DNA of 64,000 nt from Deinococcales bacterium (GTDB lineage: Bacteria; Deinococcota; Deinococci; Deinococcales; JAAFIG01): contig JAYWGM010000092.1 of the NCBI GenBank assembly GCA_043778225.1, positions 1 through 64,000 of the forward strand. Direction: 5' to 3'. The position numbers and the translations under genes are program-made. Positions within the stretch are counted from its first letter, which is position 1; each line of letters begins with the position of its first letter. The notes below the pieces were generated by a model. That model was given only the letters and a program-made list of their open reading frames with translations, was not told the origin of the DNA and made no database searches. Positions 1-64,000 of the stretch are shown one piece after another.

Positions 1-242
1 AACGGTCAAACTGTCGCTCAAGCGTTAATTCGGTCTTTTATCACTCCTTTTAGTCGGTTAATCAGTCAAAATACACGACTGATTAACATAACTTGGTATC
101 AGATACCAAGACAACCAAAAATTTAAGGTTGGCTGATTTGATTGGTTTGACTTTTAAGGTTTATTCAATAGTTCTAACTGTCATACCCAACGCCGTGGCA
201 AGTTGTTTTTATAAGGCTTTTGCACCTTGAGTCTCGAGCCAT

Positions 243-271
243 TTGCAATATAGTCCAAAATGACCTATACT
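243..271 (+). promoter_or_regulatory. sigma70-type promoter with imperfect palindrome (likely TA operator)
   Basis: TTGCAA-17 bp-TATACT; GTG 6 nt downstream (278); imperfect inverted repeat in the spacer. Confidence 0.55.
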
Positions 272-328
272 TAAATTGTGAATGTCAATAGCTTACCGCA
301 CCATACGAGAGGCAAGAGGCAGACCATC

Positions 329-736
329 ATGACAAGCCTAAACAGTGTTATTAAAACATGGCAAACTTTCCAGCAACAAATTCAAGCCCCAGAAACCGAA
401 GCCGATTACCTCGAGTTACTAGAATTCACCACCAATCTAATCGAAAAGTACGACACAAACACCGAACCATACCGCAGTTTATGGCGTGTGCTGGCTGGTT
501 ACGCCCTCGAGTGGGAAAAGCACAACGAACCTAAGCCGCTCGAGTCTAGCGTGGGCGAATTACTGCAAACACTGATGGATGCCCATGGTTTAACCCAGTA
601 CAAATTGGCTCAAGAAGGTGTGGTGAACCAATCAGCATTATCGAAGATTTTGCGCGGAAAACGTGGTATTGGCAAGGTTTTAGCCAAGCGATTTGCGAAT
701 CGGTTTCAAGTGCCAGCCAGTATTTTTTTAGTCTGA
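329..736 (+). CDS. HigA-like XRE HTH antitoxin
   Basis: ETEADY...YALEWEKH motif, then cro/XRE HTH (LMDAHGLTQYKLAQ..QSALSKILRGKRGI); ATG at 329 within ORF 278..736. Confidence 0.75.
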   Translation: MTSLNSVIKTWQTFQQQIQAPETEADYLELLEFTTNLIEKYDTNTEPYRSLWRVLAGYALEWEKHNEPKPLESSVGELLQTLMDAHGLTQYKLAQEGVVNQSALSKILRGKRGIGKVLAKRFANRFQVPASIFLV

Positions 737-3700
737 GGCTCGAGTCGAAATTTGGTTATCCGTGCGTAGCTGTGCCATATCCATTTCAATGGTTCTGACC
801 GTCACACCCAACGCAGTCGCCAATTGTCTTTGCAGGGCTTTTGCACCTTGAGCTTGAGCCTCGAGCATTAGGCGTTTTAAGCGGTGATTACGCAGGGCAA
901 CCTTGCCGTTCTGCTCGAGATGCGCTTTGTCCGAAGCGCCACTGTCAAGCGTCCAAGTGACTTCTATTGTACCTTCGCCAGTTAAAGCAGGAAGTTCAAT
1001 AATTATTGTCTCGAGATTTTGTTGTTGCCAAGCGGTTTCTATGGCTTTGGCGTAGTACACATTGCTCAGCATGACTTGCCGATTCTCGAGGGTTTCGATT
1101 TGAGTTGCAAAACGCAGTAAGGCAAATCGTGCCAATTCTAAATCCATTGGTTTTTGATAAATTAAATAAGTTGTGTAGTAAACACGCATTGAACCAGCAT
1201 TTTTTTCATATAATCCTTGCTCTGCCAAAACTTCTGTAAGTGCTTTTTCAGCTTTTTCTTTGTTCCCTGCCAAGAATTCAAGTTCGGCAATAATACGCAT
1301 ATTTTGTTTTTCGCCTTGAAAATTCAATAACTCGAGTGCCTCTGAGTAACGCTTTTGGGTATGGTAAGCCAGAACAAGGACTTTTTTTGCTTTAGCAGTA
1401 GAGTAAGAATTTGGCATTTTTTGAAGCCATTTTATTAAAGGCAGAACAATGTATTCTGCATCTTGTGTTCTCCCAAGCAATAGAAAAACCTCGGCAAGAT
1501 CACCAAAATAATATGCGATTTGACTTTCATCTAGTTGATCTTTTGCTTTTGGCGCACGTTCTGCTAATTCTTCTGCCCAAACAAGTGCTTCTTCAAATCG
1601 TCCAAGCATTTTTAGGGATTCAGAAATATTTGAAAGTGTGGCATCGATTGCTTTTCCAATGCCAAGCGTATAGCAAACGTCGAGTTGCTTTTGAAAAACT
1701 TTGCAAGCTAATTCAAAATGTTCATTAAGGTGAGCTAATGCACCTTTGATATTATACAATTGGAATGCTTGAGCGGCTAGTTCAGGATGGATTTCAAGTA
1801 AGGTTTCGGCTTCCCCAAGAACTTGCCAAGCTATATCGTATTTTCCGTTGCGAATTTGCGAATTGATTAGTGCAGTGAACATTCTGAATTTTTGCTGGAC
1901 AGGAATTGCTGTTATTTGACTCAATTGATATGCTGACATTGCAAAATGAAGTGCCATTTCAGATTCAAGAAAAGTTTTAGCAATAATGGCAGAAATAGAA
2001 CTTAGGGCATCAATCTCACGGGCTGCATCTTTTATTTCTCGAGTAAAAGATAGTAGTGCTTCAGCAGCAGCAAAGGTTAATTGTTTTTCTCCTTTATCCG
2101 CCAAAATAGTAACTTTCAACCGCATGATTCTAAAAATCAGTTTACTATCTTGTTGTTCACGGGCAGCAATTTCTAAAGATTCTATCTCTTCAATAGTTTG
2201 ATTACCCGGTGATTCTGTTTGGGCAAGTTGCAGTTCCAATAGGTTTAAGTAAGTCATTTCTAGTTGATTAGGTAACGGAATTTGATTATTTGTTCGTGCT
2301 TGGTTTATATAACTGTGAGTCTCCTGAAATGAACTTAAACTAAATGCTTCCTCAGCAGCCATTCGGTAAAAAGGCACACTCTGCGCCAATAAGCCCGCTT
2401 CCTCTGCATGGTGCGCTAAAACGGCAGCTTGAGCCTTTTGTATTTTCAAAACTTCAAAAGCAACACCATGCCATTTCTGACGAATCTCGAGTTTCATTTG
2501 TTCGTACACAAAAACCCGTGTTAAATCATGTTGAAATCCCAGGGCTGGTTCACTATGCAAAAACCGAGTCTCGAGGAGTTGAGCTATTGGTGGTTGAACG
2601 CCGAGCATGGCTTCCCAAGTTTCTAAGTCAAGGTGCTTTCCAAGTACCGAAGCCGCCTCGAGTGCATCTTGTGCTTTGCTATCCAACTTATTAAACCGAC
2701 TTTGAAAAGCATCTTCTAGGTGCTTATCGGCTTTGTTTCCCAGTACCAATTCTTGAAACACCAATGGATTACCTGCACTGATGCGGTGCATCTGTTCGAG
2801 TTCTTTAACTCCAATTTTCTTGCCTTGTCCTCGAGCCAATTGAGTGCATTCTTCTAAGCTCAGTCCGTCGAGTGCAAAATGCAGAATTTGTTGATTCTGA
2901 CGAATTTCGGTAATGGTTTCTGTGGCTTTTTGATTGTCCTTTAATTCTTGGCTTCGAGCGCTCAAGACCAGTAATACAGGTCGTTGCTTGGTAATTCGGG
3001 CTAACATTTTTAGCACAGTCCAAAATAAATCCCCCGCCCAGTGCAAGTCGTCAAGTAACCAAATCGTGGGTTGCTCGAGGTGGCGCAACCAGCGTTCGAG
3101 TGCGGCTGTGACCACTTGTGGATTGGCTTGGCTCTCCGAATCCGAACTATTCCTAACCAGTGGCTCGAGGTTCTTTTGAATCAGTGCTGTGGCTTGCTCG
3201 AGTAACACCGCCACGTTTTGTATGGCTTGCTCGAGTGGGGCATAAGCGGGTGTGCTGTTGGCGGCTGCTCCGTATAAAACTGGAATTTGATGCCATTGTG
3301 CAAGTGACTTTAACTCGAGCAGTAAACGAGTTTTACCCAGTCCGGGTTCGCCCTCGAGCAGAATGATATTGCCTTGTCCGACCCGCACCGCATTAAGGGC
3401 ATTGGTCAGCGATTGCCATTCGCGGTTGCGTCCGACCATGACTTGCTGTGCTTGGTTGTTCTGCTGCTCGAGTTGGCGCTTTAAGTCTTTAATAAAAACT
3501 TGGGTTTCGGGTTTGGCTTGGCTCGAGAATTCTTGGCTCAGAATGGTCTCGAGTTTTTCAAATGTGCTGATGGCTTCGGGTAAACGTTTTTCGGTGGCGT
3601 ACAAGCGTATCAGGTGCGTGTGTGCTTCTTCGTTCCAAGGCTCAAGCAGAATTAGTCGTTGCGCCAGTTGAATCGCTCGGCTCGAGTCGGTTGCTAAGCA

Positions 3701-4159
3701 GTGTTGCAGCGCTTGGCGCAAACCGCTCAGCATGGCTTGGTGCAGTTCTGAGCGCCAGTTGTCCAACCACGGAAGATCCTCGCCTTCTATTAAATCACCT
3801 TGGTATAGCTCGAGTGCCTTAAACCAATCTTGTGGTTCGGGGCTGCCCATCAGTTGCTTAAATTCTTGGGCATCGGTCCAAATGGGTTTTAAGCAGAGCG
3901 TTGTTGCATCGCCTAAAATGTAGTTTGCAATTTCTGGGTGTTCTTGGCGCATACGGTACAAGCTGTTGGCGAGGCGTTTACGACCTTGTTCATCGGTGCA
4001 GTCTGTCCAGATGGCTCGAGCGAGGCGCACTCTAGGCAGTGGCACACCAGATTTTTGCTGCATCGTCAGCCACGCCAGAATTTGGCTGTGACTCTTGGAA
4101 AGTGGCGTGGTCTTATCGCCAATTTCCAGATGTGGTTGTGCCAACAGATAGAGGTGCAT
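728..4159 (-). CDS. SARP/BTAD-AAA ATPase-TPR (STAND-type) transcriptional regulator with C-terminal HTH
   Basis: N-terminal wHTH+BTAD (ALELYQGDL, LEPWNEEAH), Walker A GEPGLGKT, Walker B LLDDLHWA, GNPL, TPR-like helices, C-terminal 'LATALGVTVRTIEMD'. Confidence 0.85.
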   Translation of the reverse strand: MHLYLLAQPHLEIGDKTTPLSKSHSQILAWLTMQQKSGVPLPRVRLARAIWTDCTDEQGRKRLANSLYRMRQEHPEIANYILGDATTLCLKPIWTDAQEFKQLMGSPEPQDWFKALELYQGDLIEGEDLPWLDNWRSELHQAMLSGLRQALQHCLATDSSRAIQLAQRLILLEPWNEEAHTHLIRLYATEKRLPEAISTFEKLETILSQEFSSQAKPETQVFIKDLKRQLEQQNNQAQQVMVGRNREWQSLTNALNAVRVGQGNIILLEGEPGLGKTRLLLELKSLAQWHQIPVLYGAAANSTPAYAPLEQAIQNVAVLLEQATALIQKNLEPLVRNSSDSESQANPQVVTAALERWLRHLEQPTIWLLDDLHWAGDLFWTVLKMLARITKQRPVLLVLSARSQELKDNQKATETITEIRQNQQILHFALDGLSLEECTQLARGQGKKIGVKELEQMHRISAGNPLVFQELVLGNKADKHLEDAFQSRFNKLDSKAQDALEAASVLGKHLDLETWEAMLGVQPPIAQLLETRFLHSEPALGFQHDLTRVFVYEQMKLEIRQKWHGVAFEVLKIQKAQAAVLAHHAEEAGLLAQSVPFYRMAAEEAFSLSSFQETHSYINQARTNNQIPLPNQLEMTYLNLLELQLAQTESPGNQTIEEIESLEIAAREQQDSKLIFRIMRLKVTILADKGEKQLTFAAAEALLSFTREIKDAAREIDALSSISAIIAKTFLESEMALHFAMSAYQLSQITAIPVQQKFRMFTALINSQIRNGKYDIAWQVLGEAETLLEIHPELAAQAFQLYNIKGALAHLNEHFELACKVFQKQLDVCYTLGIGKAIDATLSNISESLKMLGRFEEALVWAEELAERAPKAKDQLDESQIAYYFGDLAEVFLLLGRTQDAEYIVLPLIKWLQKMPNSYSTAKAKKVLVLAYHTQKRYSEALELLNFQGEKQNMRIIAELEFLAGNKEKAEKALTEVLAEQGLYEKNAGSMRVYYTTYLIYQKPMDLELARFALLRFATQIETLENRQVMLSNVYYAKAIETAWQQQNLETIIIELPALTGEGTIEVTWTLDSGASDKAHLEQNGKVALRNHRLKRLMLEAQAQGAKALQRQLATALGVTVRTIEMDMAQLRTDNQISTRASD

Positions 4160-4353
4160 GAAAGCTCATTGTACTGCCTAATCCCAGTTTTTGTGAGAAG
4201 GGTTTATTTTTTGCTATTGACATAATTTCGGGTGATTTTCGACGCAAATTCACCAAGCGGAAGTTGAGAGAGAGCCAGTTTATACGCTTCTCCCACGGTT
4301 AAGACGGGAGTCCGTGCAAATCGCAAACCCAATAGCTTGAAAAGGAAAAACAT

Positions 4354-4491
4354 ATGAACGAACCCCTAGAAATCCCGCAAAAACTCGAGTACACCGCCCC
4401 AAAACTCGAGCAACAACCACAATTTGTGACCATTACAGGTGCATCATTCCCGTTTGGCACAGTTTTAGGACAAGAAGGTGATGACAAATGA
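4354..4491 (+). CDS. 45-aa small peptide with lasso/RiPP-leader-like YxxPxL motif (not in ORF track)
   Basis: SD AAAGGA then ATG; MNEPLEIPQKLEYTAPKLEQQPQFVTITGASFPFGTVLGQEGDDK; stop overlaps next start (ATGA). Confidence 0.7.
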   Translation: MNEPLEIPQKLEYTAPKLEQQPQFVTITGASFPFGTVLGQEGDDK

Positions 4492-6767: not shown

Positions 6768-6786
6768 AAAAATAAATTCTCGAGTG

Positions 6787-6822
6787 GGTCATTGGATTTA
6801 TCCAATGACCTATTATTTTTTT
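6787..6822 (+). terminator. Intrinsic terminator
   Basis: GGTCATTGGA-ttta-TCCAATGACC followed by T-rich run. Confidence 0.7.
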
Positions 6823-6833
6823 GAAGGGTTTTT

Positions 6834-10795: not shown

Positions 10796-11689
10796 CTAAA
10801 ATGGTAAATCTTCTTCTGGCGGGAAATCTTGTAAGCCGTCATCAATGTCTGGTTTTGCACGGGACCCTGCGACTGGCGCAGACTGCTGTTGGGCAGCTGC
10901 GGCGGTGCGCGTCGGAGCGTAACCGCCGGCTTGGCGATTCGACCCAGAGGTGGTTCCTAAACTGCCAGCAGTTCCGGGACCGCGAGCCAGTATTTCAATA
11001 CGTCTTCCTTCAACACGGGTGGTTGATCTTTTATTACCTTCACGGTCAGTCCAAGATTCGTTGACAAGTCTGCCCAAGACCATAATCGGGTCGCCTTTTT
11101 TGAGTTCTCCGGCGGCTTCGGCGAGGTCGCGCCACAAATTAACCTCGACATAATGGGTTTTTTCTTGCCAGTTTCCAGTCTTGTCTTTCCAAGATTCATT
11201 GACAGCAATCGAAATGGTGGTAACAGCATCGCCATTTGGGGTGTAACGAAGTTCGGAATCTCGGGTTAAATTGCCGATTAAGACCACTTCGTTGAGGGCA
11301 TTGGTCAAGCGCTTTCCACCAACACTGTCGGTCACAAGTGGTTCGGCGCGGTTGCCATAATTGGCGACCTCGACCCTAAGCGCTTTGACATTGACGGCGC
11401 TGCGTTTTTGACCTTCTGGGGTTTCCCAAGTGCGAAACTCCAAAGAACCTTCGACCAGCACAGCATCGCCAGCTTTCATATTGCCATCGGTTAAACGTTC
11501 GGCTTGTTGTCCAAGAATACTGACGCGGTGATACCACGGCAAAACTCTGGCTCGCCCATCGTTGCCCATCACATTATCTTCGCCAGCCACCGTTAAATCT
11601 GCTACGGCGATACCACTTGGGGTATAACGTAAGTCGGGGTCTTTTGCCAACGCGCCCATCAAATAAACGTGATTTAAGCCTCTTGCCAT
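10796..11689 (-). CDS. ssb: Single-stranded DNA-binding protein, two OB folds (Deinococcus-Thermus type)
   Basis: Two 'LRYTP' OB repeats and acidic tail EEDLPF. Confidence 0.97.
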   Translation of the reverse strand: MARGLNHVYLMGALAKDPDLRYTPSGIAVADLTVAGEDNVMGNDGRARVLPWYHRVSILGQQAERLTDGNMKAGDAVLVEGSLEFRTWETPEGQKRSAVNVKALRVEVANYGNRAEPLVTDSVGGKRLTNALNEVVLIGNLTRDSELRYTPNGDAVTTISIAVNESWKDKTGNWQEKTHYVEVNLWRDLAEAAGELKKGDPIMVLGRLVNESWTDREGNKRSTTRVEGRRIEILARGPGTAGSLGTTSGSNRQAGGYAPTRTAAAAQQQSAPVAGSRAKPDIDDGLQDFPPEEDLPF

Positions 11690-19135: not shown

Positions 19136-19612
19136 ATGGCAGACAAAGTTCCAATTACCCTGACCGTCAACGGCATCAAGCACAGCGCTCATGTCGAGCC
19201 ACGCACCCTGTTGGTGCAATTTTTGCGCGAACAACTTTTTTTAACCGGCACGCACGTCGGTTGTGACACCAGCCAGTGCGGTTCTTGTACGATTCACATG
19301 GATGGTATGGCGGTCAAATCCTGCACGATGTTTGCGGTGCAAGCCAATGGCTCGAGCCTGACCACGATTGAAGGGCTTGGTGAGATTGGCAACCTCCACC
19401 CACTCCAAGAAGGTTTCTGGGAAATGCACGGTTTGCAATGCGGCTACTGCACCCCCGGGATGATCATGAGCGCCGCCGATTTGTTGCAGCACAACCCTCA
19501 GCCCACCGAAGCCGAAATCCGCCATGGACTCGAGGGAAATTTTTGCCGTTGCACTGGCTATCATAATATCATTAAAGCTGTTCAATACGCCGCCGATAAG
19601 ATGGCAGGGTGA
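19136..19612 (+). CDS. coxS: [2Fe-2S] small subunit of CO dehydrogenase-like molybdenum hydroxylase
   Basis: [24 protein letters not shown]. Confidence 0.92.
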
Positions 19613-19664
19613 AAGGGTCAAAAGGTTAAAAGTTTTTCACATTTAACCTTTTGACCCTTTCACC
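19608..19664. repeat. Perfect 23 bp inverted repeat built from AAAAGGNN octamers
   Basis: GGTGAAAGGGTCAAAAGGTTAAA-11 nt-TTTAACCTTTTGACCCTTTCACC. Confidence 0.9.
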
Positions 19665-19692
19665 TTTTCACCTTCGCTTTTAAGGAGTTTCT

Positions 19693-25746: not shown

Positions 25747-25888
25747 AAGGGGGAGTAGGTTTTTACTTCTTGACCATATACACGCACCCATCTTGGGCAG
25801 CACCTTCTTGCTCACAAGACAGCACCTATCGGGCTGCTTGCGCTTCGTGCATGGTCGCTTTTAACCTTTTCTACTTTTCCCCTAGACC

Positions 25889-36609: not shown

Positions 36610-40079
<3,470 letters not shown>

Positions 40080-40083
<4 letters not shown>

Positions 40084-40364
40084 GTCAAATTAAATTGGAT
40101 GTCAAAGTTGTCCTAAATGATCAACATTGGGTTCAAGCTCCAAATGGCGATGTCTTGTACATGATGAATGTTAAAACGGGCAAATACTTGTACCTGAACG
40201 AAGTTGCCACTGAAATTTGGCGGCATATTAAAACCCCAATTACGGTTCAAGAAATCTGCTTAAAACTCGAGGCGGCTTTTGATGTGGATGCAGCCCAGTG
40301 CCAAAATGAAGTGATTGGTTTTTTGAATAAACTCAAGCAAGAAGGCAATCTCGAGATTTGCTAA
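40080..40364 (+). CDS. Lasso peptide RRE / PqqD-family protein (B1)
   Basis: GKYLYLNEVATEIW...TVQEIC..L...FDVD...C..EV..FL..L. Confidence 0.9.
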
Positions 40365-42287
40365 ATGAGTGGAATTTACGGGGTGGTGCGTTTTGATGGT
40401 AAACCCATTAACCAAGACTTGGCTGCCATGCAAGCGGCAATGGCGCATTGGGGAATGGACGGGCATAGACACTGGCTGGATGACTCAGTGGCATTTGGAC
40501 AGGCATTACTAAAAACCACGCCAGAAGCCAGTTTTGAACAGTTACCAAGGTTGGTCTGTGGTGGGACGGCTGTTTTAACGGCGGCGGCTCGGCTTGATAA
40601 TCGGGTTGAATTAGCCAAAGAATTGGGTTTAGACCTAAGTCAACAAGTTATTACCGCCGATGGAACTTTGGTGGCACTGTCTTTTGAAAAATGGGGTCAG
40701 GATTGCGTGCATCGGTTGCTTGGCGATTGGGCTTTTGCGGTTTGGAATAAGAATCAGCGCAGTCTTTTTTTGGCTCGAGACCATTTTGGGAACACTGGAC
40801 TGCATTTTTGTTTGTGGCAGGATGGTTTTGCTTTTTCTTCAGGCATTGAAGGGATTCTTGCACTAGAGGATGTTCAGCCAAAAATCAATCAGCCACGAAT
40901 TGTTGCGTTGCTGACTTTGGCAGTAGAAGATAGCTCGAGTACCTATTACGAAAATATTTTCCGCTTAGAAACAGCCCATAGCCTAACTTTGCAAAATCAG
41001 AAACTGCATTTTAAACGGTACTGGAAACTCGAGGAAACACCGCAACTTAAATTGGGTTCAGATGCCGAGTATGTTGAAGCATTTGTCTCCATTTACAAAA
41101 CAGCCGTCCATGACCGAATGCGCTCGAGTCGTCCAATTGCCAGTACCCTTTCGGCTGGGCTGGATTCTGGGGCGGTCACGGCATTTGCCGCCGAGTTGTT
41201 GCGTGGGCGCGGTCAAGAACTGACCGCGTTTACTTCTGTGCCAGTGTACCCAACCTTTGATTTGGTGCAACGTGGAATTGCCAATGAATGGGATTTGGCG
41301 CATCAGTCGGCACAATGGATTGGCAATGTCAAACACATGGCTTTACCTGCCGATAATTGGACACCACTGGCTGGTATTCGGCAAGCAACAAAAATTCTGC
41401 AAGAACCCGAATTTGCGACTGGCAACAGTTACTGGATTCAAGCCTTGTTATCAGAACTTCGTCAGCAAGGTTTTGGGGTTTTACTGACAGGGCAGTGCGG
41501 AAACTTAGCCGCTTCTTGGGAAGGTGGTATGTACCGTACTTGGTCGGCTTTGCGTCAAGGTCAGCTTGGGTTAGTGTTTGGGCAGTTGCGTTCTGGGGCA
41601 ATACAACGCCATTCTTGGACTCGAGCCGTGCTGGGTGAAATTGCCAAACCCGCTTTTTTATCGCTTCAAGCCCATTGGCTACAATTGACTCGAGCGCCAC
41701 AAAAACCGTATTGGACTAAACATTCGGTGATTTCACCAATTCTGGTGCATCAACTTAAACTTCTCGAGCCAAGCCAATATAAATTTAGTATTTCAGAGCA
41801 ACCTTTTTTGTATTCGGTTAAGCAGCAATTACGGCAAGTTGTTTCTATTCCGACTCGACTAGGGGCGACTTGGCACACCATGGGAGCAGGCTATGGACTC
41901 GAGGTGCGTGACCCAACGATGGACAAACGCTTACTCGAATTTTGTTTTTCAATTCCGCTAGGGCAGTTTTCTGGCGCGGGTCATGACCGTTGGCTGATGC
42001 GTCGGGCTGTGCAGGGTCTATTACCGCCAGCCGTACAATGGAACACCAAGCGTGGTCAGCAAGGAAAAGACATTGGGCAACGGCTTTTGGCTTCTCGAGA
42101 TGAGGTCGAAGAATTGCTGGAGCGTTTAAGCTCGAGTCAGAGTACAAGGTATTTGAATGTTCATAAAGTAAAAAATGCTTGGATTCGTTTGCAGCAAGAA
42201 CAAGTCAATCCCGCTCAGGAAGACGGAATTATGATTTTGGGGGCTTTGGGTTTGGGGTTGTTTTTAGAACAGGCAGAGATACGATAA
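40365..42287 (+). CDS. Lasso cyclase (asparagine synthetase-like, C)
   Basis: MSGIYG without Cys1, RLDNR, ARDHFG, LSAGLDSG, LLTGQ.G, RDPTMDKRL. Confidence 0.9.
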   Translation: MSGIYGVVRFDGKPINQDLAAMQAAMAHWGMDGHRHWLDDSVAFGQALLKTTPEASFEQLPRLVCGGTAVLTAAARLDNRVELAKELGLDLSQQVITADGTLVALSFEKWGQDCVHRLLGDWAFAVWNKNQRSLFLARDHFGNTGLHFCLWQDGFAFSSGIEGILALEDVQPKINQPRIVALLTLAVEDSSSTYYENIFRLETAHSLTLQNQKLHFKRYWKLEETPQLKLGSDAEYVEAFVSIYKTAVHDRMRSSRPIASTLSAGLDSGAVTAFAAELLRGRGQELTAFTSVPVYPTFDLVQRGIANEWDLAHQSAQWIGNVKHMALPADNWTPLAGIRQATKILQEPEFATGNSYWIQALLSELRQQGFGVLLTGQCGNLAASWEGGMYRTWSALRQGQLGLVFGQLRSGAIQRHSWTRAVLGEIAKPAFLSLQAHWLQLTRAPQKPYWTKHSVISPILVHQLKLLEPSQYKFSISEQPFLYSVKQQLRQVVSIPTRLGATWHTMGAGYGLEVRDPTMDKRLLEFCFSIPLGQFSGAGHDRWLMRRAVQGLLPPAVQWNTKRGQQGKDIGQRLLASRDEVEELLERLSSSQSTRYLNVHKVKNAWIRLQQEQVNPAQEDGIMILGALGLGLFLEQAEIR

Positions 42288-42288
42288 A

Positions 42289-42318
42289 TTGCCGTGCCAA
42301 AGGTTTTTTGTGTATAAT
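42289..42318 (+). promoter_or_regulatory. Putative internal promoter for the precursor gene
   Basis: TTGCCG-18 bp-TATAAT, then SD AAGGAG at 42329. Confidence 0.45.
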
Positions 42319-42342
42319 GAAACCTATCAAGGAGAAATAGTA

Positions 42343-42507
42343 ATGGAAAAAATTCAATCTGAGCAAGTAGAAATGCAAACAGAAGTTCTGACCCGTAAAG
42401 TGTGGGTAGCCCCGCAATTGGAAACGATTGAATTTTTAGACACAAGTCTGGCGATAAACCCCGGTGGAGTTTTTGATGCCATTTATAGTGCGAGTAGGTC
42501 ATTTTAA
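42343..42507 (+). CDS. Lasso peptide precursor (A)
   Basis: MEKIQSEQVEMQTEVLTRKVWVAPQLETIEFLDTSLAINPGGVFDAIYSASRSF; WxxPxL leader motif, Thr near the junction, Asp acceptor. Confidence 0.85.
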   Translation: MEKIQSEQVEMQTEVLTRKVWVAPQLETIEFLDTSLAINPGGVFDAIYSASRSF

Positions 42508-42565
42508 CCATATCAATTGCTCTAAAAGTAGTATTGCTTTTAACTTTGTAACACAACTCAATTAC

Positions 42566-42594
42566 GGCGGCTAAAGACCACAGTCGCTTTTTTT
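42566..42594 (+). terminator. Weak terminator after the precursor
   Basis: GCGGCT-loop-AGTCGC-TTTTTTT. Confidence 0.5.
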
Positions 42595-42615
42595 GTTGAC
42601 CTAAACTCTCGATTT

Positions 42616-43749
42616 ATGACTTACAAAATAAATTCCCACACCCAATTTTTGAGAAGCCAACAAGTTTTGATGACTCAAAACACCAATAACATTGAGCTTC
42701 GGCATACTGTTTTTCAGACTTCTTGCCACATCAACCAAGTCGGGTATTCTGTTTGGCAACTTCTCGAGCAACCCCAAACCCTCGAGATGCTTGGTTCGCA
42801 GCTTGTCCACCAATACGATGTCAGTCCAGAAATTGCCAGCCGCACCCTAGAAAATCTGCTCGATCAATTGCATGGCTTGGGCTTTATAGGTGTGCAGTAT
42901 GCAAATTTGCCCCCAGACCCAATGCGTCAACGGTATTTGGAATTACTCCAAAAAGCCTTGATGAATTTGTTGTACCCCGAACATGAATTGCGAATTCGGC
43001 ATTTGCTGATTGCCGAAAAACCAGCCAGTTCACTCGAGACAGACAGGTTTCTGCGTGATATTCGCAGCACACAACCAGAACAGTACGCCGAAGTTATGGC
43101 ATCCAAACAAGTCGGTGGGGTGCTGTACAACGAAGTCACTCGGTATTCACACACCGCCATTGGGATTCGTCGCTTAGAGAATCTGCAAGCCTGTGCCGAA
43201 GCGGTCTTTGCCGATGGTATCAAAGGCGATTTTCTCGAGGCTGGAGTCTGCCAAGGTGGAGCATCTATTTTTATGCGGGCGTTGCAAGTGGCGTATGGGC
43301 AAGCCGAACGTCTCATGTGGGTGGCGGATTCATTTGCGGGTTTACCCGTGCCAACAGCCGACTTGGATGTGCAAAGTCAACTTGATTGGTCTGAACCTCG
43401 GCAACCGTGGTTGGCAATGAGTCTCGAGACGGTACAAGAACATTTTCGACGTTACGATATGCTGAGTGGTTCGGTACATTTTTTACAAGGTTGGTTTGCC
43501 GATACACTGCCTACAGCCCCGATTCAAAAACTGGCTATTTTGCGTCTCGATGCCGATTTATACAGTTCGACCACCGATATTTTAGAAGCCTTGTATAATC
43601 GGGTCTCGGCTGGTGGTTTTATTATCGTGGATGATTACGCGGGTATTAAAGCCTGCCGAGAAGCCGTGGATAACTTTAGAACCAAAAATAGTATTCTCGA
43701 GCCAATTCGCTCTGTGGATTGGAGTTGTGTCTACTGGCGTAAAGCCTAG
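42616..43749 (+). CDS. PqqD/RRE-fused TylF/MycF/NovP-family O-methyltransferase
   Basis: N-terminal INQVGYSVWQLL..PQTL...L...YDVS; C-terminal GDFLEAGVCQGG, VADSFAG, GWFADTLP, LRLDADLY, IVDDY. Confidence 0.85.
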   Translation: MTYKINSHTQFLRSQQVLMTQNTNNIELRHTVFQTSCHINQVGYSVWQLLEQPQTLEMLGSQLVHQYDVSPEIASRTLENLLDQLHGLGFIGVQYANLPPDPMRQRYLELLQKALMNLLYPEHELRIRHLLIAEKPASSLETDRFLRDIRSTQPEQYAEVMASKQVGGVLYNEVTRYSHTAIGIRRLENLQACAEAVFADGIKGDFLEAGVCQGGASIFMRALQVAYGQAERLMWVADSFAGLPVPTADLDVQSQLDWSEPRQPWLAMSLETVQEHFRRYDMLSGSVHFLQGWFADTLPTAPIQKLAILRLDADLYSSTTDILEALYNRVSAGGFIIVDDYAGIKACREAVDNFRTKNSILEPIRSVDWSCVYWRKA

Positions 43750-43751
43750 GT

Positions 43752-45269
43752 ATGGCTCACAGCATTGTTCATCTGTACGGCACTGACCCTGAAGGCGAAA
43801 ACATTGGGCAATTCAAACACCGAGTTTTGAATCCGATAGCCTTGTTCGCCGACCACCCAGATTTTGGTGTTTTTGGACTATCTATTTTCGAGCCAGACTT
43901 TGAAGAAATTGCCCTGAATTGCGACCTTTTAATTATCCATGAACTGACTTACCCTGAACTCGAGTCACTGATTTTACTGCGTCGGTCAGGGCAAAAGCCA
44001 ACACTGTACGAAATTGCCGATGATTTTCTGGCACTGGGTTCTTGGCTACCGGCAAATCATGGTTTGTTTAGCCCTATGAACCAATCAACTCGGTTGAACT
44101 TAGCGGCTTTGGCTGATGGAATTATTTTTTCTTCGCTTGGTTTAGAACAAAAATTTGCTGATGTGAACCAAAAAAAAACAGTCTTGTCCAACTATGTTGA
44201 ACCACCGGCTAACGCTCCCAAAAAAGCCGATGGTTTTGTTTTTGGTTGGGCTGGAACAAGCACCCACAGCCAAGACTTGATGAGTGTTGCCCCAGAAATC
44301 ACGGTATTTTGCCAAACGTACCCCCATGTTAAATTTGCCGTTATGGGGCAAAGAAGTCAACTCGAGCCGATGTTTAAGGACATTCCAAAGCATCAGCTGA
44401 TTGTTCAAGATTTTGCTTCTTACAACACGTACCTTGGTTTTTTGCAAGGCTTGGATGTTGGGATTGCGCCATTATTGCCAAGCACATTTAATCAAAGCCG
44501 CACCGATGTAAAATTTGTGGAATATACTGTTTGCAACGTGGCTTGTCTTGTCTCAGCGCACAAAATCTACCAACCCCATCAAAGTTATACCAAGGTGTTT
44601 TCTAGCCCTTCGGAGTTTTTATCTTTACTCGAGCAACTGTATGCCAATCCTCAAATCCGAACCGATTTGGTGACTCGAGCCACGGCTTGGGTGGAAGTAA
44701 ATCGCAGCAAAAAAGCCATTTATGAGCAGCATCTACACTTGTACCGAAAGATGCTAGGTAAAACATTAGGCTCAAAAGTTTCTAAGCTAACCCTTCAAAC
44801 AGACCTACGGCAGCAAATGTGCATGGCATGGCAAACTCGAGCCAAAGCTGACCATCAAAAAACCTTGGAATTGACGATGAATTTATTAAGCCAATATCCG
44901 CTCTGGCATCAGGCAAGGTATTTAGCGGTTTTATCGTTACAGGCTTTGGGGCAATTTAGGGAATTGGTATTGCTGGCAGAAACACATATAGATTCAATTT
45001 ATGCAACCCTGATTGCCGAAATTGCGTATATCGCAACTGAAAAAACCCAACCCGAGCTTCAGCCCAATTTTTATGTCAGACTTTCGGAAATGGCACAATT
45101 AAGACTAAAAACACCAAGTCCACAGTCCCAATTTGAAATCATTTTACAGCACCGTCCATACGACTTTTTTGCGCTGCACGGCATGGTTCATTGGCTCGAG
45201 CCTACCGACCCACAATTGGCAATTTTGCGGCAGCGTTTAGCCTTATTAAACCCTTTAGAAAAATCATGA
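43752..45269 (+). CDS. GT-B (GT4-like) glycosyltransferase with helical C-terminus
   Basis: YEIADD, FGWAGTSTHSQDL, LDVGIAPL...FNQSRTDVKFVEY. Confidence 0.75.
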   Translation: MAHSIVHLYGTDPEGENIGQFKHRVLNPIALFADHPDFGVFGLSIFEPDFEEIALNCDLLIIHELTYPELESLILLRRSGQKPTLYEIADDFLALGSWLPANHGLFSPMNQSTRLNLAALADGIIFSSLGLEQKFADVNQKKTVLSNYVEPPANAPKKADGFVFGWAGTSTHSQDLMSVAPEITVFCQTYPHVKFAVMGQRSQLEPMFKDIPKHQLIVQDFASYNTYLGFLQGLDVGIAPLLPSTFNQSRTDVKFVEYTVCNVACLVSAHKIYQPHQSYTKVFSSPSEFLSLLEQLYANPQIRTDLVTRATAWVEVNRSKKAIYEQHLHLYRKMLGKTLGSKVSKLTLQTDLRQQMCMAWQTRAKADHQKTLELTMNLLSQYPLWHQARYLAVLSLQALGQFRELVLLAETHIDSIYATLIAEIAYIATEKTQPELQPNFYVRLSEMAQLRLKTPSPQSQFEIILQHRPYDFFALHGMVHWLEPTDPQLAILRQRLALLNPLEKS

Positions 45270-46219
45270 CAAAAGATTACTTATTATTTGGCTGGCGAGT
45301 ACGTGCCAATATCAGATTGCCTTGTTTTGAATTATTCAAGACGGGTGAACCAGACTGCTGCATCAATTTTTTACCTCCGCTCGAGTCACCTCAACTCTCC
45401 CTGCCAAATTTTGCGACCTTACTCGAAACCGATGGCGTACAGTCGGTTTGGCGGATAGACCAAGACACTTGGCGCATAGAAATGTTTAATCAAATCACCA
45501 ATCAGTGGTTACAACTCAATTTTCGTCAATCTGGCAAAAATATCGAAGTAATCTACAGCCAAAACACGATTGTCGAAAACATCCTACCAATGCTGCTCAC
45601 AAGGTTATTTACAACAATTTTATGGAATTCTGGACTCGTCTGCTTACACGGAGGTGTGGTCAATACCGAACAAGGTGGCGTTCTGCTGCTCGGGGATTCT
45701 GGCGATGGTAAATCCAGTACCTTAACCGCACTTTGGCAACAAGGTTGTACTGTGTTGAGCGATGATATTGCGGTTCTCGAGCCAAACGAACCTTGTCTGG
45801 TACATATTGGACCAAGGTATTTGCGCTTACACGACGACTCTGCCTCTGTACTGGGCATCAATCCAGAATCCCTACCAACCATATTTTTACCCGCCGAAAC
45901 GATTGGCAATAAGCGTTACATCAACCTCGAACATCAAGTGTGTCCTGTCTCGGTGGCAGTGCAACAAATTTTTATTCTTGCTGGACGAGAAAATATCGAA
46001 CAAACCAAATTGACTCGCCTTGCACCGTACATGGCTGTGGCAGAATTACTAAAATACCAATTTCGAGGTCAGCAACTCGAGCCACAAATTTACCCGCAAC
46101 TCCTAAAAGTAGCTGTTGCCTTAGCGCACCAATGCCATGTCTACTTGGTTCACACGCCAGCTAACCTTGAGAAATTACCTGAAATAGCCCAAACGATACT
46201 TGGGCAGCCACTTGTATAA
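45266..46219 (+). CDS. HPr-kinase-like lasso peptide kinase
   Basis: LHGGVV, GDSGDGKSS, VLSDD; ATGA overlap with the GT gene. Confidence 0.8.
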   Translation: MTKDYLLFGWRVRANIRLPCFELFKTGEPDCCINFLPPLESPQLSLPNFATLLETDGVQSVWRIDQDTWRIEMFNQITNQWLQLNFRQSGKNIEVIYSQNTIVENILPMLLTRLFTTILWNSGLVCLHGGVVNTEQGGVLLLGDSGDGKSSTLTALWQQGCTVLSDDIAVLEPNEPCLVHIGPRYLRLHDDSASVLGINPESLPTIFLPAETIGNKRYINLEHQVCPVSVAVQQIFILAGRENIEQTKLTRLAPYMAVAELLKYQFRGQQLEPQIYPQLLKVAVALAHQCHVYLVHTPANLEKLPEIAQTILGQPLV

Positions 46220-57225: not shown

Positions 57226-57321
57226 AGCCTTGCAAGTCTAGCAGAATACAAGTAAAAGTCGAAAGCCAAAAGGCTTAGATTCTCACAGCTTTTTTTTAGT
57301 TTTTAGCTTAGACTGTTCAAC

Positions 57322-58131: not shown

Positions 58132-58140
58132 GAGTGCATC

Positions 58141-58236
58141 ACGAACGTGCTTTGGCTGAGTTGGCTTGGGATGCCTGTCAAAAATTTTGCTGCCATGTCG
58201 GCTTTCTTTGAAAATGCACTTGGTCTCGAGTTATAA
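58141..58236 (+). pseudogene. Remnant of a VOC/glyoxalase gene
   Basis: SD AGGAG, then ACG in place of ATG; NVLWLSWLGMPVKNFAAMSAFFENALGLEL-stop. Confidence 0.5.
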
Positions 58237-58266
58237 AGTCGAGACCAGTTCAGTTCAAGGTTCTCT

Positions 58267-59574: not shown

Positions 59575-59920
59575 ATTGTAATCCTGTAAACCACGAAACC
59601 TCGAGATTCAGGACGAGAGGCGTAGAAAAGAAAGAGGCGAACTCGAGCGCAAGCAGCCGTCCTGATGAAAGGCTTGCAACAACTGTCTAGCATACACCAA
59701 CAATAGTGAAAGTCATGGGCAAAATAGCCTAAGTATCTACCGCCTTTGTTTTAGATTTTTCAAAATACGGCAAATCTGTCACTTCAGCGGTAGATACGCT
59801 GTCCTTACTCCTTCTAGTCGCAAAATGTTTTAGGAAAAACACCTAAAACATTTCGGGGAGATACTTAGGTGGTGATTTTGGGTTGACGAGCGGATACTTG
59901 ACAAAAAATTGTGGACTTAA

Positions 59921-60520
59921 TTAACGCGAAGTCATATGAACCAGAATTCCTAGGATAGCCTCGAGTTCGGTCAATGTATATTCACGAATATCCAAGGTGA
60001 CTTGTGTTCCCTCGAGTTGTAAAAATCGCCAATCTGTACCACTGGTGACAGCGCCAAAAATCTTTTCTCGAGCCTGATTACGGGCTTGATTAAAACGTTG
60101 TGCCGCGATCATCTCTGCTACACACTGGGCAATCCCGCCAGATAAATCTTCACGTTTTGCCTCTACAAGCATCACCACAGGGGCTTGTACTTGAATTAAA
60201 AGTGGGTCTTGGCTGATTAAAAAGTCACAGAAACCATGTAAACCAAGTTTTTTATCAACATTGAATGCTACGCCAGAAAAAACAGCAATTCGCTGCTCGA
60301 GGATTTCACGAATCTCGACTAGAATGGGGGCGATAATATGTTCGGAACGGGCTTTTTCTGTGCCTTTGCCAATCACAAGTGGTAAATTGCGTTTGAGTAC
60401 AGCGGTTAGTAAATCGCTGGCTTTTTGAAGTTTGACTTGGGCAAATAAATCTTTATTCTGCACAATAGAAAGTGCAAATCGTTGTATCAGTAAATCCAAG
60501 GTGAAGCCTTCGTATGCCAT
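59921..60520 (-). CDS. PD-(D/E)xK-fold hypothetical protein
   Basis: EKARSE..IAPIL, GFCDFL, VEAK, GAVTSGTDWRF. Confidence 0.65.
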   Translation of the reverse strand: MAYEGFTLDLLIQRFALSIVQNKDLFAQVKLQKASDLLTAVLKRNLPLVIGKGTEKARSEHIIAPILVEIREILEQRIAVFSGVAFNVDKKLGLHGFCDFLISQDPLLIQVQAPVVMLVEAKREDLSGGIAQCVAEMIAAQRFNQARNQAREKIFGAVTSGTDWRFLQLEGTQVTLDIREYTLTELEAILGILVHMTSR

Positions 60521-60549
60521 AGCGTTAGCCTAGCACAGCATCTAGCTGT

Positions 60550-60625
60550 TTATAGATACTTTTCGAGCCAACCTAGATACTCTTTTAGCCTAAAGACCCG
60601 CCTATCTGGTCTGCCGCTTTTCGAG
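60550..60625 (-). repeat. Duplicated 3' end of the S9 peptidase gene (copy A)
   Basis: 67/76 identical to 63316..63391; reads SKSGRPDRRVFRLKEYLGWLEKYL-stop. Confidence 0.9.
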
Positions 60626-60701
60626 TTTATTTTATACCGAGTCTCAAGTCGCTCGAATAAAATCATTTACGCAACGAAATTGTTCGAGGTTGAACATAGC
60701 T

Positions 60702-60810
60702 GTGTCAATAATGCTAGTCTATGGATTGGGATTATATCACTCAAGAAGATTTGGCGGCAACACCTACATTTGGTGTCAATAATGCTAGTCTATGGATTGG
60801 GATTATATCA
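60702..60810 (+). repeat. Two exact 38 bp direct repeats with a 33 bp spacer
   Basis: GTGTCAATAATGCTAGTCTATGGATTGGGATTATATCA at 60702 and 60773. Confidence 0.9.
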
Positions 60811-61737
60811 ATGGTCATTACAAGAAATCTTCATACCCAAAAAGCTGAAATTTTGCGCTATTTGCGAGACCGCGCCTCAGAAGCTTATGGCGAAATTGTG
60901 GTGGTTTATGGCGAGCGTGACTTCAAAAAAAGAGGCACAGCGATCAATCAAGCAATTGCAAAAACCATTTCAAATTTGAAGACCATTATTGTGCAACGGG
61001 CTGCAAGTCAAAATTGGAATCAAGAAGAGAAGTTAAAAAATATTCTTATTGTGACTTACTGTTCTTATGTTGTGATGATTGAATTTAGAAATATGGTTTG
61101 GGCATACGAATATATGGCTTTTTCTCGAAGAATTGGCGAATTGTGGGATCCTTTTTGTAGACTTTGTTTTGATTATCCTGTACGCAGCGATATTGAACTT
61201 TATGAACCACCACTTTTTTCAGAAGTCAAAGAACAACTTCAAAATGAAATTCGGATTTATATTGCGAATCTTTATTTGACTCAAGAAGAAAAAAGTAGGC
61301 TTGTTTCTTACTATGATAAGGTTTGGAGCTTGGTGACTTCTGGCGAGATTCAGTTGGAACTTGACCTCCATTTTCGTATTGGAGATATTAATTTCAATGT
61401 TGATTTTAAGAGTGGGTTTCAATCAAATGAAAAAGGAAATACAAATCGCCTACTTTTGGTGGCTTCAATTTATAAAAATATATTGAGTTCAAATAATGAG
61501 TGTCTTTTGCTTGTTCGAGCCAATGAAGATGAGAACAATAATTATTTGCAAACACTCAAGAACTCGGGTATTTGGAGTGTCTATTGTGGTGCGCAAGCCT
61601 ACGAGAAAATTTATCAGTACAGTGGTTTTGATTTGGCTGATTGGATACAAAATAATGTTTCTTGGATAACAGATTTTCTGCCTGAAACACATCAATATCT
61701 CGAGCAAAATGACCTAGCGAAGTATTTAATATGGTAG
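60811..61737 (+). CDS. Putative type II restriction endonuclease
   Basis: ELDLHF...VDFKSGF PD-(D/E)xK-like motif; overlaps the MTase; AT-rich; start could be 60721. Confidence 0.65.
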   Translation: MVITRNLHTQKAEILRYLRDRASEAYGEIVVVYGERDFKKRGTAINQAIAKTISNLKTIIVQRAASQNWNQEEKLKNILIVTYCSYVVMIEFRNMVWAYEYMAFSRRIGELWDPFCRLCFDYPVRSDIELYEPPLFSEVKEQLQNEIRIYIANLYLTQEEKSRLVSYYDKVWSLVTSGEIQLELDLHFRIGDINFNVDFKSGFQSNEKGNTNRLLLVASIYKNILSSNNECLLLVRANEDENNNYLQTLKNSGIWSVYCGAQAYEKIYQYSGFDLADWIQNNVSWITDFLPETHQYLEQNDLAKYLIW

Positions 61738-63236
61738 GGACAGTCTCGAGAAAACGAAATGAGTTTCAGGCATTTTATACAAACTGCAATGATATTACTT
61801 CTTACATGGTTGGGTTATTGGACTGTCAAGCGGGAATGTCAATTTTAGAGCCATGCGCTGGAGATGGGGCGATTATAGACGAATTGCTTAAGCAAAATTC
61901 TCGAGCGCAAATTTCTGCTTTTGAAATGAACAACCAAAGTGTAAGCAATCTTAAAAGAAAATATCGAATGGTCAACACAGTTCAAATTACTGGGGTCGAT
62001 TTTACGCAATATCATTCGCAAAACACTTATGACAGAATTATTGCCAATCCTCCATATGGTGCTTATCAAACCCTTGAAAAACGGGCAGAACTCAAAAATG
62101 AGTATCCAGATTTATATGCCAAAGAAACTTACGGAATCTTTTTGGCAAAAGCCATAGAAATGCTTTTGCCAAAAGGACGTTTAGTATTTATCGTTCCAGA
62201 TACTTTTTTGACACTGCATATGCACCAAGGATTAAGAAAAAAACTACTTCTCGAGTGCAAAATTGAGTCTATTACACTATTCCCATCGCATTTTTTCCCC
62301 AGTGTTCATTTTGGCTATGCAGGACTTTGTATTATTTCGGCTTGCAAAGATGTGGCACATGAATGTGATTTTCCTGTTTATAAAGGTTTGACAAGTACCC
62401 AAGACCTCAAAATCTTACTGACACCACAAAAAGTCAGTTTTGAGATTTGTCAGCTTTCCTACAGGCAAATAAAAACGAATCCTGCCCATTCTTTTTATCT
62501 ATCTAATGATTTACAGATTCAAACTTTGCTCGAACAAGGTTTACCGACGCTCGAAAATATCTGTGATGTTGTGACCGGATTTTATTCTGGAAACGATGCA
62601 ATATATCTTAGGAGAGCCGAAAAAGTGAAACGTGGAGTTCATAAATATAAAACTATTGAACTTGATTTGATTTATCAAGAACCCACGCCTTCGCTTGAGG
62701 GAATTGAAGCAGCAAACTATTGGATACCTATTGTTAAAGGTGGTAACAGGCGTTTCTATAAACCGTCTGAATGGTTTATGGACTGGAGTAAAAACGCGAT
62801 TCACGACTATAAAGTGGTCAATAAGAAGAAAGCTAGATTTCAAAATTCGCAATTTTATTTTCGACAAGGAATTGCCGTACCAATGGTTTCGTCGAGTGCA
62901 ATAACGGCGGCACTCATCAACAATAGATTATTTGACCAATCAATTGTTGGAATTTTCCCAAAAGAGGATTACCAGTTTTTACTGATGTATCTGCTTGGAT
63001 TTTTTAACTCGAGTATCTGTAATCGTTTTATCCGAATCATTAACGCAAGCACCAATAACTCATCAAACTATATCAAAAAAATCCCATTTTTGATGCCCAA
63101 TAAAGATCAAATTGATACTGTTTCTAGCTTAGTAGTTGGGCTGTGTGAACTTGCAAATTACAGAGAAATTAAGGCATCTGATTTACACACTCTGGATACA
63201 GTTTTTGAACAAATTTATCAACTCAAGAGCATCTAA
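61731..63236 (+). CDS. N6-adenine DNA methyltransferase (gamma class)
   Basis: Motif I ILEPCAGDG, motif IV IANPPY, C-terminal TRD-like region. Confidence 0.9.
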   Translation: MVGTVSRKRNEFQAFYTNCNDITSYMVGLLDCQAGMSILEPCAGDGAIIDELLKQNSRAQISAFEMNNQSVSNLKRKYRMVNTVQITGVDFTQYHSQNTYDRIIANPPYGAYQTLEKRAELKNEYPDLYAKETYGIFLAKAIEMLLPKGRLVFIVPDTFLTLHMHQGLRKKLLLECKIESITLFPSHFFPSVHFGYAGLCIISACKDVAHECDFPVYKGLTSTQDLKILLTPQKVSFEICQLSYRQIKTNPAHSFYLSNDLQIQTLLEQGLPTLENICDVVTGFYSGNDAIYLRRAEKVKRGVHKYKTIELDLIYQEPTPSLEGIEAANYWIPIVKGGNRRFYKPSEWFMDWSKNAIHDYKVVNKKKARFQNSQFYFRQGIAVPMVSSSAITAALINNRLFDQSIVGIFPKEDYQFLLMYLLGFFNSSICNRFIRIINASTNNSSNYIKKIPFLMPNKDQIDTVSSLVVGLCELANYREIKASDLHTLDTVFEQIYQLKSI

Positions 63237-63315
63237 ATGCTTACTGAACTATGCACCACAAGTCAATTTTGTAGTGCATGCAAACTCAAGGATTGTGATT
63301 TCTCGAGCCGAACTT

Positions 63316-64000
63316 TTACAGGTGCTGCTCGAGCCAACCTAAATACTCTTTTAACCTAAAGACCCGCCTATCTGGTCTGCCACTTCTCGAGAGTTCGTGG
63401 TTCTCGGCTGGAAAACGCACCAAACGGGTTGGTACACCTAAATTCTTGAGCGCCACAAACCACTGCTCGGCTTGCTCGATTGGGCAACGGTGGTCCTCCT
63501 CTGAATGCACAATTAAACATGGTGTCTTGACATTTTTAATGTGTTTAAGCGGCGATTTTTCCCAGAGCCGATCAAAATCTTCTGGGACTTTGCCGCGCAA
63601 TTCTCGAGGCACAAAGCGGTAGCCAATGTCAGATGTGCCGTTAAACGAGACCCAATTGCAAATGCTGCGGTCGGTAATTGCTGCCTTAAAGCGTTGGCTG
63701 TGTGAAATTGCCCAGTTGACCATTAAGCCGCCGTAGCTTCCACCAACAATCGCAATGCGTTTTGGGTCTAAATAAGTATGTTGATCTAAACAAGTGTCTA
63801 AAAACGCCATCAGGTCAGCATAGTCGCCGTTTAGGTAATCGCCACCAATTCCAGCCGTTTGGGCATCGCCGTAGCCCGTGCTGCCGCGAATGTTGCAAAA
63901 TGCGACCGCATAGCCAGCCGCCGCGAGGGTCTGAAATTCGTTCATGTAGGCATAGCCCCAAGCCGTGGCAGGTCCGCCGTGGACATTTAAGACCATCGGG
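63316..64000 (-). CDS. S9 family peptidase (partial, 3' end)
   Basis: HGGP, GGSYGG, EEDHRC, ENHELSRSG. Confidence 0.93.
   Translation of the reverse strand, partial: PMVLNVHGGPATAWGYAYMNEFQTLAAAGYAVAFCNIRGSTGYGDAQTAGIGGDYLNGDYADLMAFLDTCLDQHTYLDPKRIAIVGGSYGGLMVNWAISHSQRFKAAITDRSICNWVSFNGTSDIGYRFVPRELRGKVPEDFDRLWEKSPLKHIKNVKTPCLIVHSEEDHRCPIEQAEQWFVALKNLGVPTRLVRFPAENHELSRSGRPDRRVFRLKEYLGWLEQHL

Follow-up and report, generated by a model that had tools for sequence, protein, structure and literature searches.

The 64,000-base stretch of Deinococcales DNA analyzed here in its entirety, hereafter the window, carries the six-base palindrome CTCGAG (hereafter also the word) in 397 copies, or 6.2 per kb, a number 48 times that obtained in dinucleotide shuffles (8.3 ± 2.7 copies, n = 100; maximum, 15) and 27 times the 14.4 copies (0.23 per kb) expected from the base composition. 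The initial annotation, which had described the palindrome as highly iterated throughout the window and had tallied about 27 copies over the opening 4.2 kb against an expected 0.2 per kb or so, was thus borne out, the count in that segment being exactly 27. The copies, along with the other features to which we refer below, lie as follows.

233–63608 (first copy 233–238, last copy 63603–63608), both within genes, whatever their strand and frame, and in intergenic DNA: 397 dispersed copies of CTCGAG (direct count)
1337–2037, no strand: 0.7-kb segment of the SARP/TPR gene without a copy, a gap of ordinary length (site count)
10796–11689, minus strand: SSB with two OB-fold matches (domain search)
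19596–19690 and 25796–25870: two intergenic repeat families
60302–61698, no strand: longest word-free stretch (1.4 kb at 37% GC), which takes in most of the restriction-endonuclease-like gene (site count)
60549–60625, plus strand: duplicate (88%) of the 3'-terminal 77 nt of the neighboring peptidase gene (63315–63391)
60721–61737, plus strand: AT-rich gene of 338 aa beside the methylase, a putative endonuclease with one CTCGAG near its end and no Pfam or NCBIfam match
61731–63236, plus strand: Eco57I-class adenine methylase of 501 aa, 37% GC and 2.7 words per kb, 23% identical to the TaqI-like stand-in introduced below

The same density pervades the source assembly (G000; 107 contigs, designated by C-numbers, 4.03 Mb, 89% complete), in which we counted 24,877 copies, roughly one per 160 bases, with all 107 contigs at 4.0 per kb or more. 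CTCGAG is the top palindrome of that genome, with an observed-to-expected ratio (O/E) of 15 at second order, and is as dense inside the 3,626 open reading frames called by a simple longest-frame rule (6.17 per kb) as outside them (6.21 per kb). The sequence flanking the copies is close to random, so that the word is six letters long and has no core of 9–12 bases with a flanking consensus of the kind found in DNA uptake sequences. Among the RNA genes, 6 of 69 tRNA calls contain the word; three primer motifs recovered no rRNA from the assembly, and an Rfam search of the window gave no match. The density climbs with the GC content of the gene, from 0.09 per kb at 30% to 6.5 per kb at 50%, which scarcity in AT-rich genes is as expected if copies accumulate after a gene has been acquired. 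The absence noted earlier at 60811–61690 was confirmed, with zero copies counted; the drop ascribed to the TPR segment of the SARP gene stands in so far as no copy lies at 1340–2030, but a gap of about 700 bp is ordinary among the 398 gaps of 600–1000 bp that occur genome-wide.

As had been proposed beforehand as a check, we shuffled synonymous codons within genes, and the excess survived in every frame: the 13,156, 4,527 and 4,704 copies observed in the three frames of G000 compare with about 1,670, 400 and 340 after shuffling, an excess of 8–14 times in each, so that the claimed occurrence in coding and non-coding DNA and in all three reading frames holds. Where the word could be formed by synonymous choice alone, it is present in 69%, 57% and 42% of instances in the respective frames. 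The Leu-Glu frame holds 59% of the coding copies, and Leu-Glu is the most enriched dipeptide of G000 (2.3 times) whereas Glu-Leu stands at 0.97 times, indicating that the pressure for the word has altered the proteins. The probability of the word given Leu-Glu was flat, at 0.69–0.73, across six classes of a codon proxy, and we accordingly rejected a dependence on expression.

G000 shows other marked biases of composition. GGA/TCC is its rarest trinucleotide (0.72), between genes as well, and G-ending codons ahead of GA or AA are strongly avoided. GGCC is nearly lost, with 131 copies in 4 Mb (O/E 0.01), 32 hexamer classes fall below an O/E of 0.15, and CCWGG stands at 0.17; the dipeptide Trp-Pro, which cannot be encoded without GGCC, has an O/E of 0.09, and Gly-Pro one of 0.33. 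The near-loss of GGCC and of those 32 classes would fit a heavy exchange of DNA among strains carrying many restriction systems.

In a survey of 151 genomes of the order, with densities calculated from rounded genome sizes, the enrichment proved to be family-wide and graded. All 19 genomes of the uncultured Deinococcales family to which the window belongs carry 4.3–6.8 copies per kb, the GC content of their loci ranging from 45 to 61%, and the single-contig chromosome of one of them (G013) keeps to 3.1–5.9 per kb across 20 pieces. Outside the family (the labels Deinococcus-like, Thermus-like and Meiothermus-like being our own reading of the family and genus groups), the 36 Deinococcus-like genomes have 0.01–0.27 per kb; the 22 genomes of the Thermus-like genus g9 have 0.6–1.1 per kb, similar to the reversed word; and the Meiothermus-like genera g13, g22, g24 and g11, along with some genera of family f2, reach 1.4–3.4 per kb. 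In G042, of genus g13, CTCGAG is the top hexamer in 400 kb (O/E 5.8), while the megaplasmid of Allomeiothermus silvanus carries 1.6 per kb, 4.8 times over composition (150 kb). The excess is therefore real and family-wide, and it is explained neither by codons nor, as set out below, by a shared methylase.

The word is also held in place. Three sister species (G001, G003 and G005), 90–92% identical over a 93-kb three-way alignment, enabled us to follow its turnover on two polarised branches, where synonymous losses numbered 65 versus 177 expected; the loss ratio was alike at the three positions of the palindrome (0.38, 0.34 and 0.38), and seven control hexamers gave ratios of 0.8–1.5. In comparison with matched Leu codon pairs, CTCGAG was lost less often both through single-base changes (20/501, or 4.0%, versus 156/1,105, or 14.1%) and through multi-base changes (13/501, or 2.6%, versus 59/1,105, or 5.3%). 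Of the 1,485 words examined in G003, 1,100 were intact in G000 at an identity of 79%, versus 13–41% for six control hexamers. In the sequence runs consulted for polymorphism, which consist of contigs, the main contigs were identical to the window. As a separate matter, individual branches of the trio show substitutions bunched at distances of up to about 15 bp and trailing out to 60 bp, and the gene tree switches locally over tens of bases; the clustering is compatible with, and may hint at, very short recombination imports.

The copies furthermore repel one another. A synonymous Leu-Glu site reads CTCGAG in 37% of instances when the nearest copy is 7–9 bp away and in 85% when that copy is more than 300 bp distant. 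In a logistic fit over 32,711 opportunities in G000, the effect on the logit was -1.4, -1.6 and -1.3 over 7–15 bp, -0.9 at 16–18 bp, -0.5 at 22–30, -0.3 at 41–60, -0.1 at 91–160, and zero beyond 200 bp, with upstream and downstream neighbors equal in effect; among the control words, three unrelated ones were flat, as was one of two competing Leu-Glu words, the other being slightly positive. The same shape recurred in G003 and in G013 (400 kb each). Expressed as pair ratios, CTCGAG stands at 0.18–0.45 at 8–15 bp, 0.64 at 16–21 and 0.83–0.88 at 22–60; generic inverted repeats are also thinned, to 0.67–0.82 at 8–15 bp and 0.94 beyond, and twelve other palindromes drop to 0.54–0.76 at 12 bp or less, so that CTCGAG goes further than the controls. 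Conservation between G003 and G000 likewise fell from 79% (345/438) for copies with a neighbor at 120 bp or more to 63% (92/147) for those with one at less than 25 bp (P = 1.5e-4). The repulsion may reflect diminishing returns. Pairs exactly 7 bp apart form an exception, at 0.9 of the plateau versus 0.18 at 8–9 bp, and a word beside a copy that differs by one base at that distance is enriched 1.6–2 times.

A type I-E CRISPR array of G000 (C80:17–2691), adjoining cas genes, afforded a view of the invading DNA. Among its 43 distinct spacers, 10 contain CTCGAG, against 0.26 expected by shuffling and 7.4 if the spacers were host-like, and host-avoided words numbered 2 versus about 20. Invading DNA would be expected to shun a restriction target, so that the carriage of CTCGAG in spacers makes it unlike one; together with the enrichment in the host and the finding of no cognate nuclease among those searched for below, this argues against a target of the XhoI/PaeR7I type. 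No spacer matched the G000 assembly beyond 18 bases, and with their sources not found, phage, plasmid and unassembled self DNA are indistinguishable as donors. The CRISPR repeat had no match in metagenome contigs. A search for phage contigs by a pattern of three copies of CTCGAG returned 131 loci, the two densest long ones being GC-rich, with the reversed word common too and no protein match to G000.

The initial annotation had suggested, as one of two explanations, that a methylation/repair system creates or maintains the sites, which suggestion was not upheld. Methylase profiles matched abundantly in the family (PF01555 in 17/19 genomes; PF00145, PF07669 and PF02086 in 18/19 each); among the matches listed for these four Pfam classes (30 per search plus 20 more), in metagenome-assembled genomes 57–94% complete and with other methylase classes outside the search, no methylase cluster spans the family, and G013 and G006 have no methylase of the four classes in common at 45% identity. 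As stand-ins for the known CTCGAG methylases we took a TaqI-like enzyme of G025 (E = 3e-126 against M.TaqI) and a PaeR7I/XhoI-type enzyme of G042, which proteins are presumed counterparts of the CTCGAG enzymes; searched over the 151 genomes, the first was found in 0/19 family members and the second in 1/19, at 32% identity. The XhoI-family nuclease PF04555 gave 0/19 in a search that was positive in six other genomes of the order, and Vsr gave 0/19 with positive controls, which result, along with the protection of no single position, speaks against very-short-patch repair. On the strength of the four Pfam classes, the locus clustering and the two stand-ins we rejected a family-wide methylase as the cause; the window's own methylase—AT-rich, word-poor and with one relative among the matches listed—was rejected as well. 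A scan of named genomes with a methylase of g22 matched unrelated taxa for the most part. Two side observations concern these enzymes: the TaqI-like methylase is present in 22/22 genomes of g9 (L205–L223; also L204 of G025), an unusual constancy for a restriction-type gene, and Vsr is missing although G000 has at least five C5 methylases.

Set beside known systems, CTCGAG works like a highly iterated palindrome (HIP) but is not the HIP1 of cyanobacteria; it is a denser counterpart in another phylum. HIP1 (GCGATCGC) and the alternate cyanobacterial palindromes share with it the palindromic form, the genome-wide occurrence in all frames and between genes, the conservation beyond codon needs, the clade-wide spread and a function still unsettled, so that the HIP1-like behavior claimed at the outset, including a scarcity in recent AT-rich genes, was substantiated. 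The word itself differs, having six letters, residing in a Deinococcales host whose CGATCG is depleted (O/E 0.11), and reaching 6,170 per Mb versus 300–2,700; for CTCGAG, moreover, a short-range repulsion was measured. For HIP1, a methylation model has been put forward together with four strains reported to carry HIP1 but no CGATCG methylase (Elhai 2015, PMC4390886); the corresponding enzyme common to the carrier genomes was not found here within the classes searched. Selection and a 10–90 kb periodicity (Xu et al. 2018, PMC5861425), an uptake role (PMC13756078), and a stimulation of transformation with both uptake-like and Chi-like effects (Kamoku and Nielsen, 10.1101/2024.09.10.611283) have also been reported for HIP1.

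The Chi sites of AddAB and RecBCD resemble CTCGAG in being short over-represented words, and in this order AddAB is present wherever CTCGAG is enriched and missing from the family lacking the word; Chi sites are strand-skewed, non-palindromic and orientation-dependent, whereas CTCGAG is a perfect palindrome with a far higher over-representation. The uptake sequences of Neisseria (DUS) and Pasteurellaceae (USS) are longer, non-palindromic and present at about one per kb; like CTCGAG, with its enriched dipeptide, they build up in genes, where the encoded peptides are doubled in number, and genes of recent arrival lack them (PMC2817400). For CTCGAG a bias in uptake would be a candidate property. 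The signal of Campylobacter jejuni is a six-base palindrome (10.1101/2024.09.10.611283), as is CTCGAG; this signal, RAATTY, needs its methylase. Finally, m6A CTCGAG methylases without a cognate nuclease occur in Marinithermus hydrothermalis, Meiothermus ruber and M. chliarophilus (Blow et al. 2016, PMC4752239), and the Meiothermus and Marinithermus hosts are relatives of the window's family in which the same six letters are moderately enriched; what the accessible part of that source reports is methylation, or, in Nocardia, a cluster of CTCGAG at the origin, not a genome-wide excess, and the stand-ins for such enzymes are the very ones that the window's family largely lacks. Elsewhere CTCGAG is mentioned, in the parts available, as a methylated motif only (10.64898/2026.06.24.734251; PMC8112702), and our literature search, whose coverage left out most subscription journals, found no description of an excess of CTCGAG or of any palindrome in Deinococcota or Meiothermus.

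We propose that a protein acting in repair or recombination reads CTCGAG as an exact and probably unmethylated six-base palindrome, with no need of methylation. The reader might be the AddAB helicase-nuclease, for which the word would be a Chi-like signal to stop or load, or else the machinery of natural transformation, for which it would be a signal for uptake or processing; DNA with a copy nearby would be repaired or recombined in more often, whereby copies would be kept by weak selection or by a recombination drive. If one copy serves about 50–100 surrounding bases, close extra copies add little, and saturation would set in at around one copy per 160 bases. A signal having its value in one copy within tens of bases would fit the equal protection of all positions, the conservation, the leveling-off and the carriage by invaders. 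That CTCGAG is a signal for repair or recombination we hold to be an evenly balanced proposition, with the Chi-like and uptake-like versions sharing it about equally; the fuller statement, that Deinococcota outside Deinococcus use an unmethylated palindromic self-tag with a reach of tens of bases, read by AddAB or the uptake machinery and here driven to one copy per 160 bases, with the proteome reshaped and with phages and plasmids carrying it, is tentative and on the whole doubtful.

The machinery for such a role is present. G000 encodes an AddA-like protein (C79:31168–33813) and an AddB-like protein (C32:43473–45914) on different contigs with other neighbors, while addA and addB are adjacent in G006, G013 and four genomes of g5. 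AddA orthologues were found in 17/18, 36/37, 22/23 and 35/36 genomes of families f1, f2, f4 and f5; the Deinococcus-like family, the sole one without the word, gave weak matches only, in 6/36. ComEC occurs in 5/5 family genomes tested, and in G000 motif matches point to DprA and to three proteins of PilT type. Machinery for the uptake or recombination system that the initial annotation had offered as its other explanation is present, but that it reads CTCGAG is a candidate property, and the ends of gene indels ignore the word.

A number of observations weigh against the proposal of a repair or recombination signal. We found no protein that reads CTCGAG, the match between AddA and the word amounts to a single evolutionary loss, and the Thermus-like genomes possess AddA but no excess of CTCGAG. 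Deletion of addAB left the HIP1 effect in place, and the known Chi sites are non-palindromic (10.1101/2024.09.10.611283). Gains of the word from precursors one base off were 8 versus 6.2 expected on the polarised branches, with no strong boost seen in these small numbers; substitution tracts show little or no tendency to end at words (r reduced by about 0.05, standard error about 0.03; not significant), and tract boundaries at words were rejected; and the ends of gene indels fell within 6 bp of CTCGAG in 3/50 instances versus 5.3 expected, five of the events appearing in two or three comparisons. The repulsion is in part a generic avoidance of hairpins; its tail is missing from G042, which retains only the core at 7–15 bp; and it is weak between genes, partly because a third of the close pairs there (34/97) sit in longer hairpins. 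In the trio, the slope of loss against distance after correction for the local rate was -0.16 ± 0.13 (P = 0.22, not significant), and a 1/d^1.25 power law fits the spacing about as well as a footprint plus tail, so that the physical scale is only loosely set.

Among the alternatives, Elhai's ratchet—in which a CTCGAG or TCGA methylase marks one strand, mismatch repair keeps the marked strand, and copies are fixed until saturation—draws on the orphan methylases of cultured relatives (PMC4752239), on the constant TaqI-like enzyme of the Thermus-like genomes, on MutS and MutL motifs and more than 20 methylase-like genes in G000, and on the saturation that the model predicts (PMC4390886). The enzyme would have to belong to a class outside the search, vary from genome to genome or have disappeared. 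Against the ratchet, both stand-ins are nearly absent and, in the four classes searched, no methylase is common to G013 and G006; the gains are not strongly boosted; the lower conservation of copies with a close neighbor would not be predicted by a ratchet acting at replication; and A. silvanus shows the excess without a CTCGAG methylase being listed for it, as M. silvanus, in the accessible part of the single-molecule real-time sequencing table (PMC4752239), although that technique misses much m5C. We deem the ratchet unlikely. A site for a sequence-specific nucleoid or chromosome-organizing protein that needs one copy per 100–200 bases, as argued for HIP1 by Xu et al. (PMC5861425), is quite unlikely: it would be in keeping with the uniform density inside genes, outside them and along the chromosome of G013, and with an exclusion strongest within about 20 bp and so footprint-like, but the pair distances in G000 lack any helical periodicity (periods of 4–60 bp), word-free stretches of 2–5.6 kb occur and are tolerated, and host architecture alone leaves unexplained why invader-derived spacers hold the word at the density of the host.

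The 77-nt duplication beside the window's restriction-modification islet, which ends on the word, and the 21 of 29 apparent gains that stand at least two bases apart from the inferred ancestor might suggest that a site-specific recombinase or nuclease inserts or joins DNA at CTCGAG, or that an enzyme writes the word by changing several bases at once. Many of those multi-base gains, however, have the word in the outgroup and are thus shared losses or imports, and multi-base change is rarer at words than at the matched Leu codon pairs, by which control we rejected the writer; the indel ends led us to reject site-specific joining, and the XhoI-family nuclease was not found in the 19 genomes. This explanation is largely refuted and very improbable. 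That the word is a side effect of biased codon or amino-acid usage, of short-range mutational bias or of very-short-patch repair could be argued from the preponderance of the Leu-Glu frame and from the context biases of G000, such as the low GGA/TCC; this explanation is already refuted by the frame controls, with their equal density between genes and the disparity between Leu-Glu and Glu-Leu, by the equal protection of all positions and by the Vsr search, and its probability is close to negligible.

Within the window, the AT-rich endonuclease-like and methylase genes form an islet at 60549–63391, flanked by the 77-nt duplication, in whose extra copy both native CTCGAG read TTCGAG. The islet is a putative recent acquisition. 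The only relative of the 338-aa gene among the matches listed is in G006 (L115, 48%), and the methylase is not family-wide. An exact 38-nt direct repeat (60702–60739 and 60773–60810) lies across the start of the nuclease-like gene. Elsewhere, the SSB has two OB-folds, the Deinococcota type, and served solely to place the lineage, which, together with a protein of a same-order genome that is identical to a Meiothermus record, gives the order as Deinococcales; an IMP dehydrogenase of 896 aa (36938–39628) is interrupted by an inserted segment matching Hint (intein-like); and a lasso-peptide-type cluster (39625–46219) comprises a cyclase, a PqqD-TylF methyltransferase fusion and an HPr-kinase-like gene. 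The two intergenic repeat families, both present also in sister species, are a hairpin of TTTTAACC-like units with 164 BLAST hits in G000, and an element of 42–66 nt with 14.

The function of HIP1 has been unsettled for thirty years, and a second case, in another phylum, which is denser and for which no shared methylase was found, uncouples the word from methylation. Measured in this analysis, as were the turnover on polarised branches, the count of spacers and the distribution of AddAB, the spacing rule sets a length scale of tens of bases that any mechanism must explain, and the graded series—absent in Deinococcus-like genomes, mild in the cultured Meiothermus type, extreme in the window's family—renders the matter testable in culturable relatives. 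CTCGAG is in addition a strong marker for binning and host assignment, and DNA built for these organisms may need it. If the self-tag proposal is true, CTCGAG would be the first palindromic Chi-like signal, and the HIP phenomenon would have arisen here independently and without a methylase.

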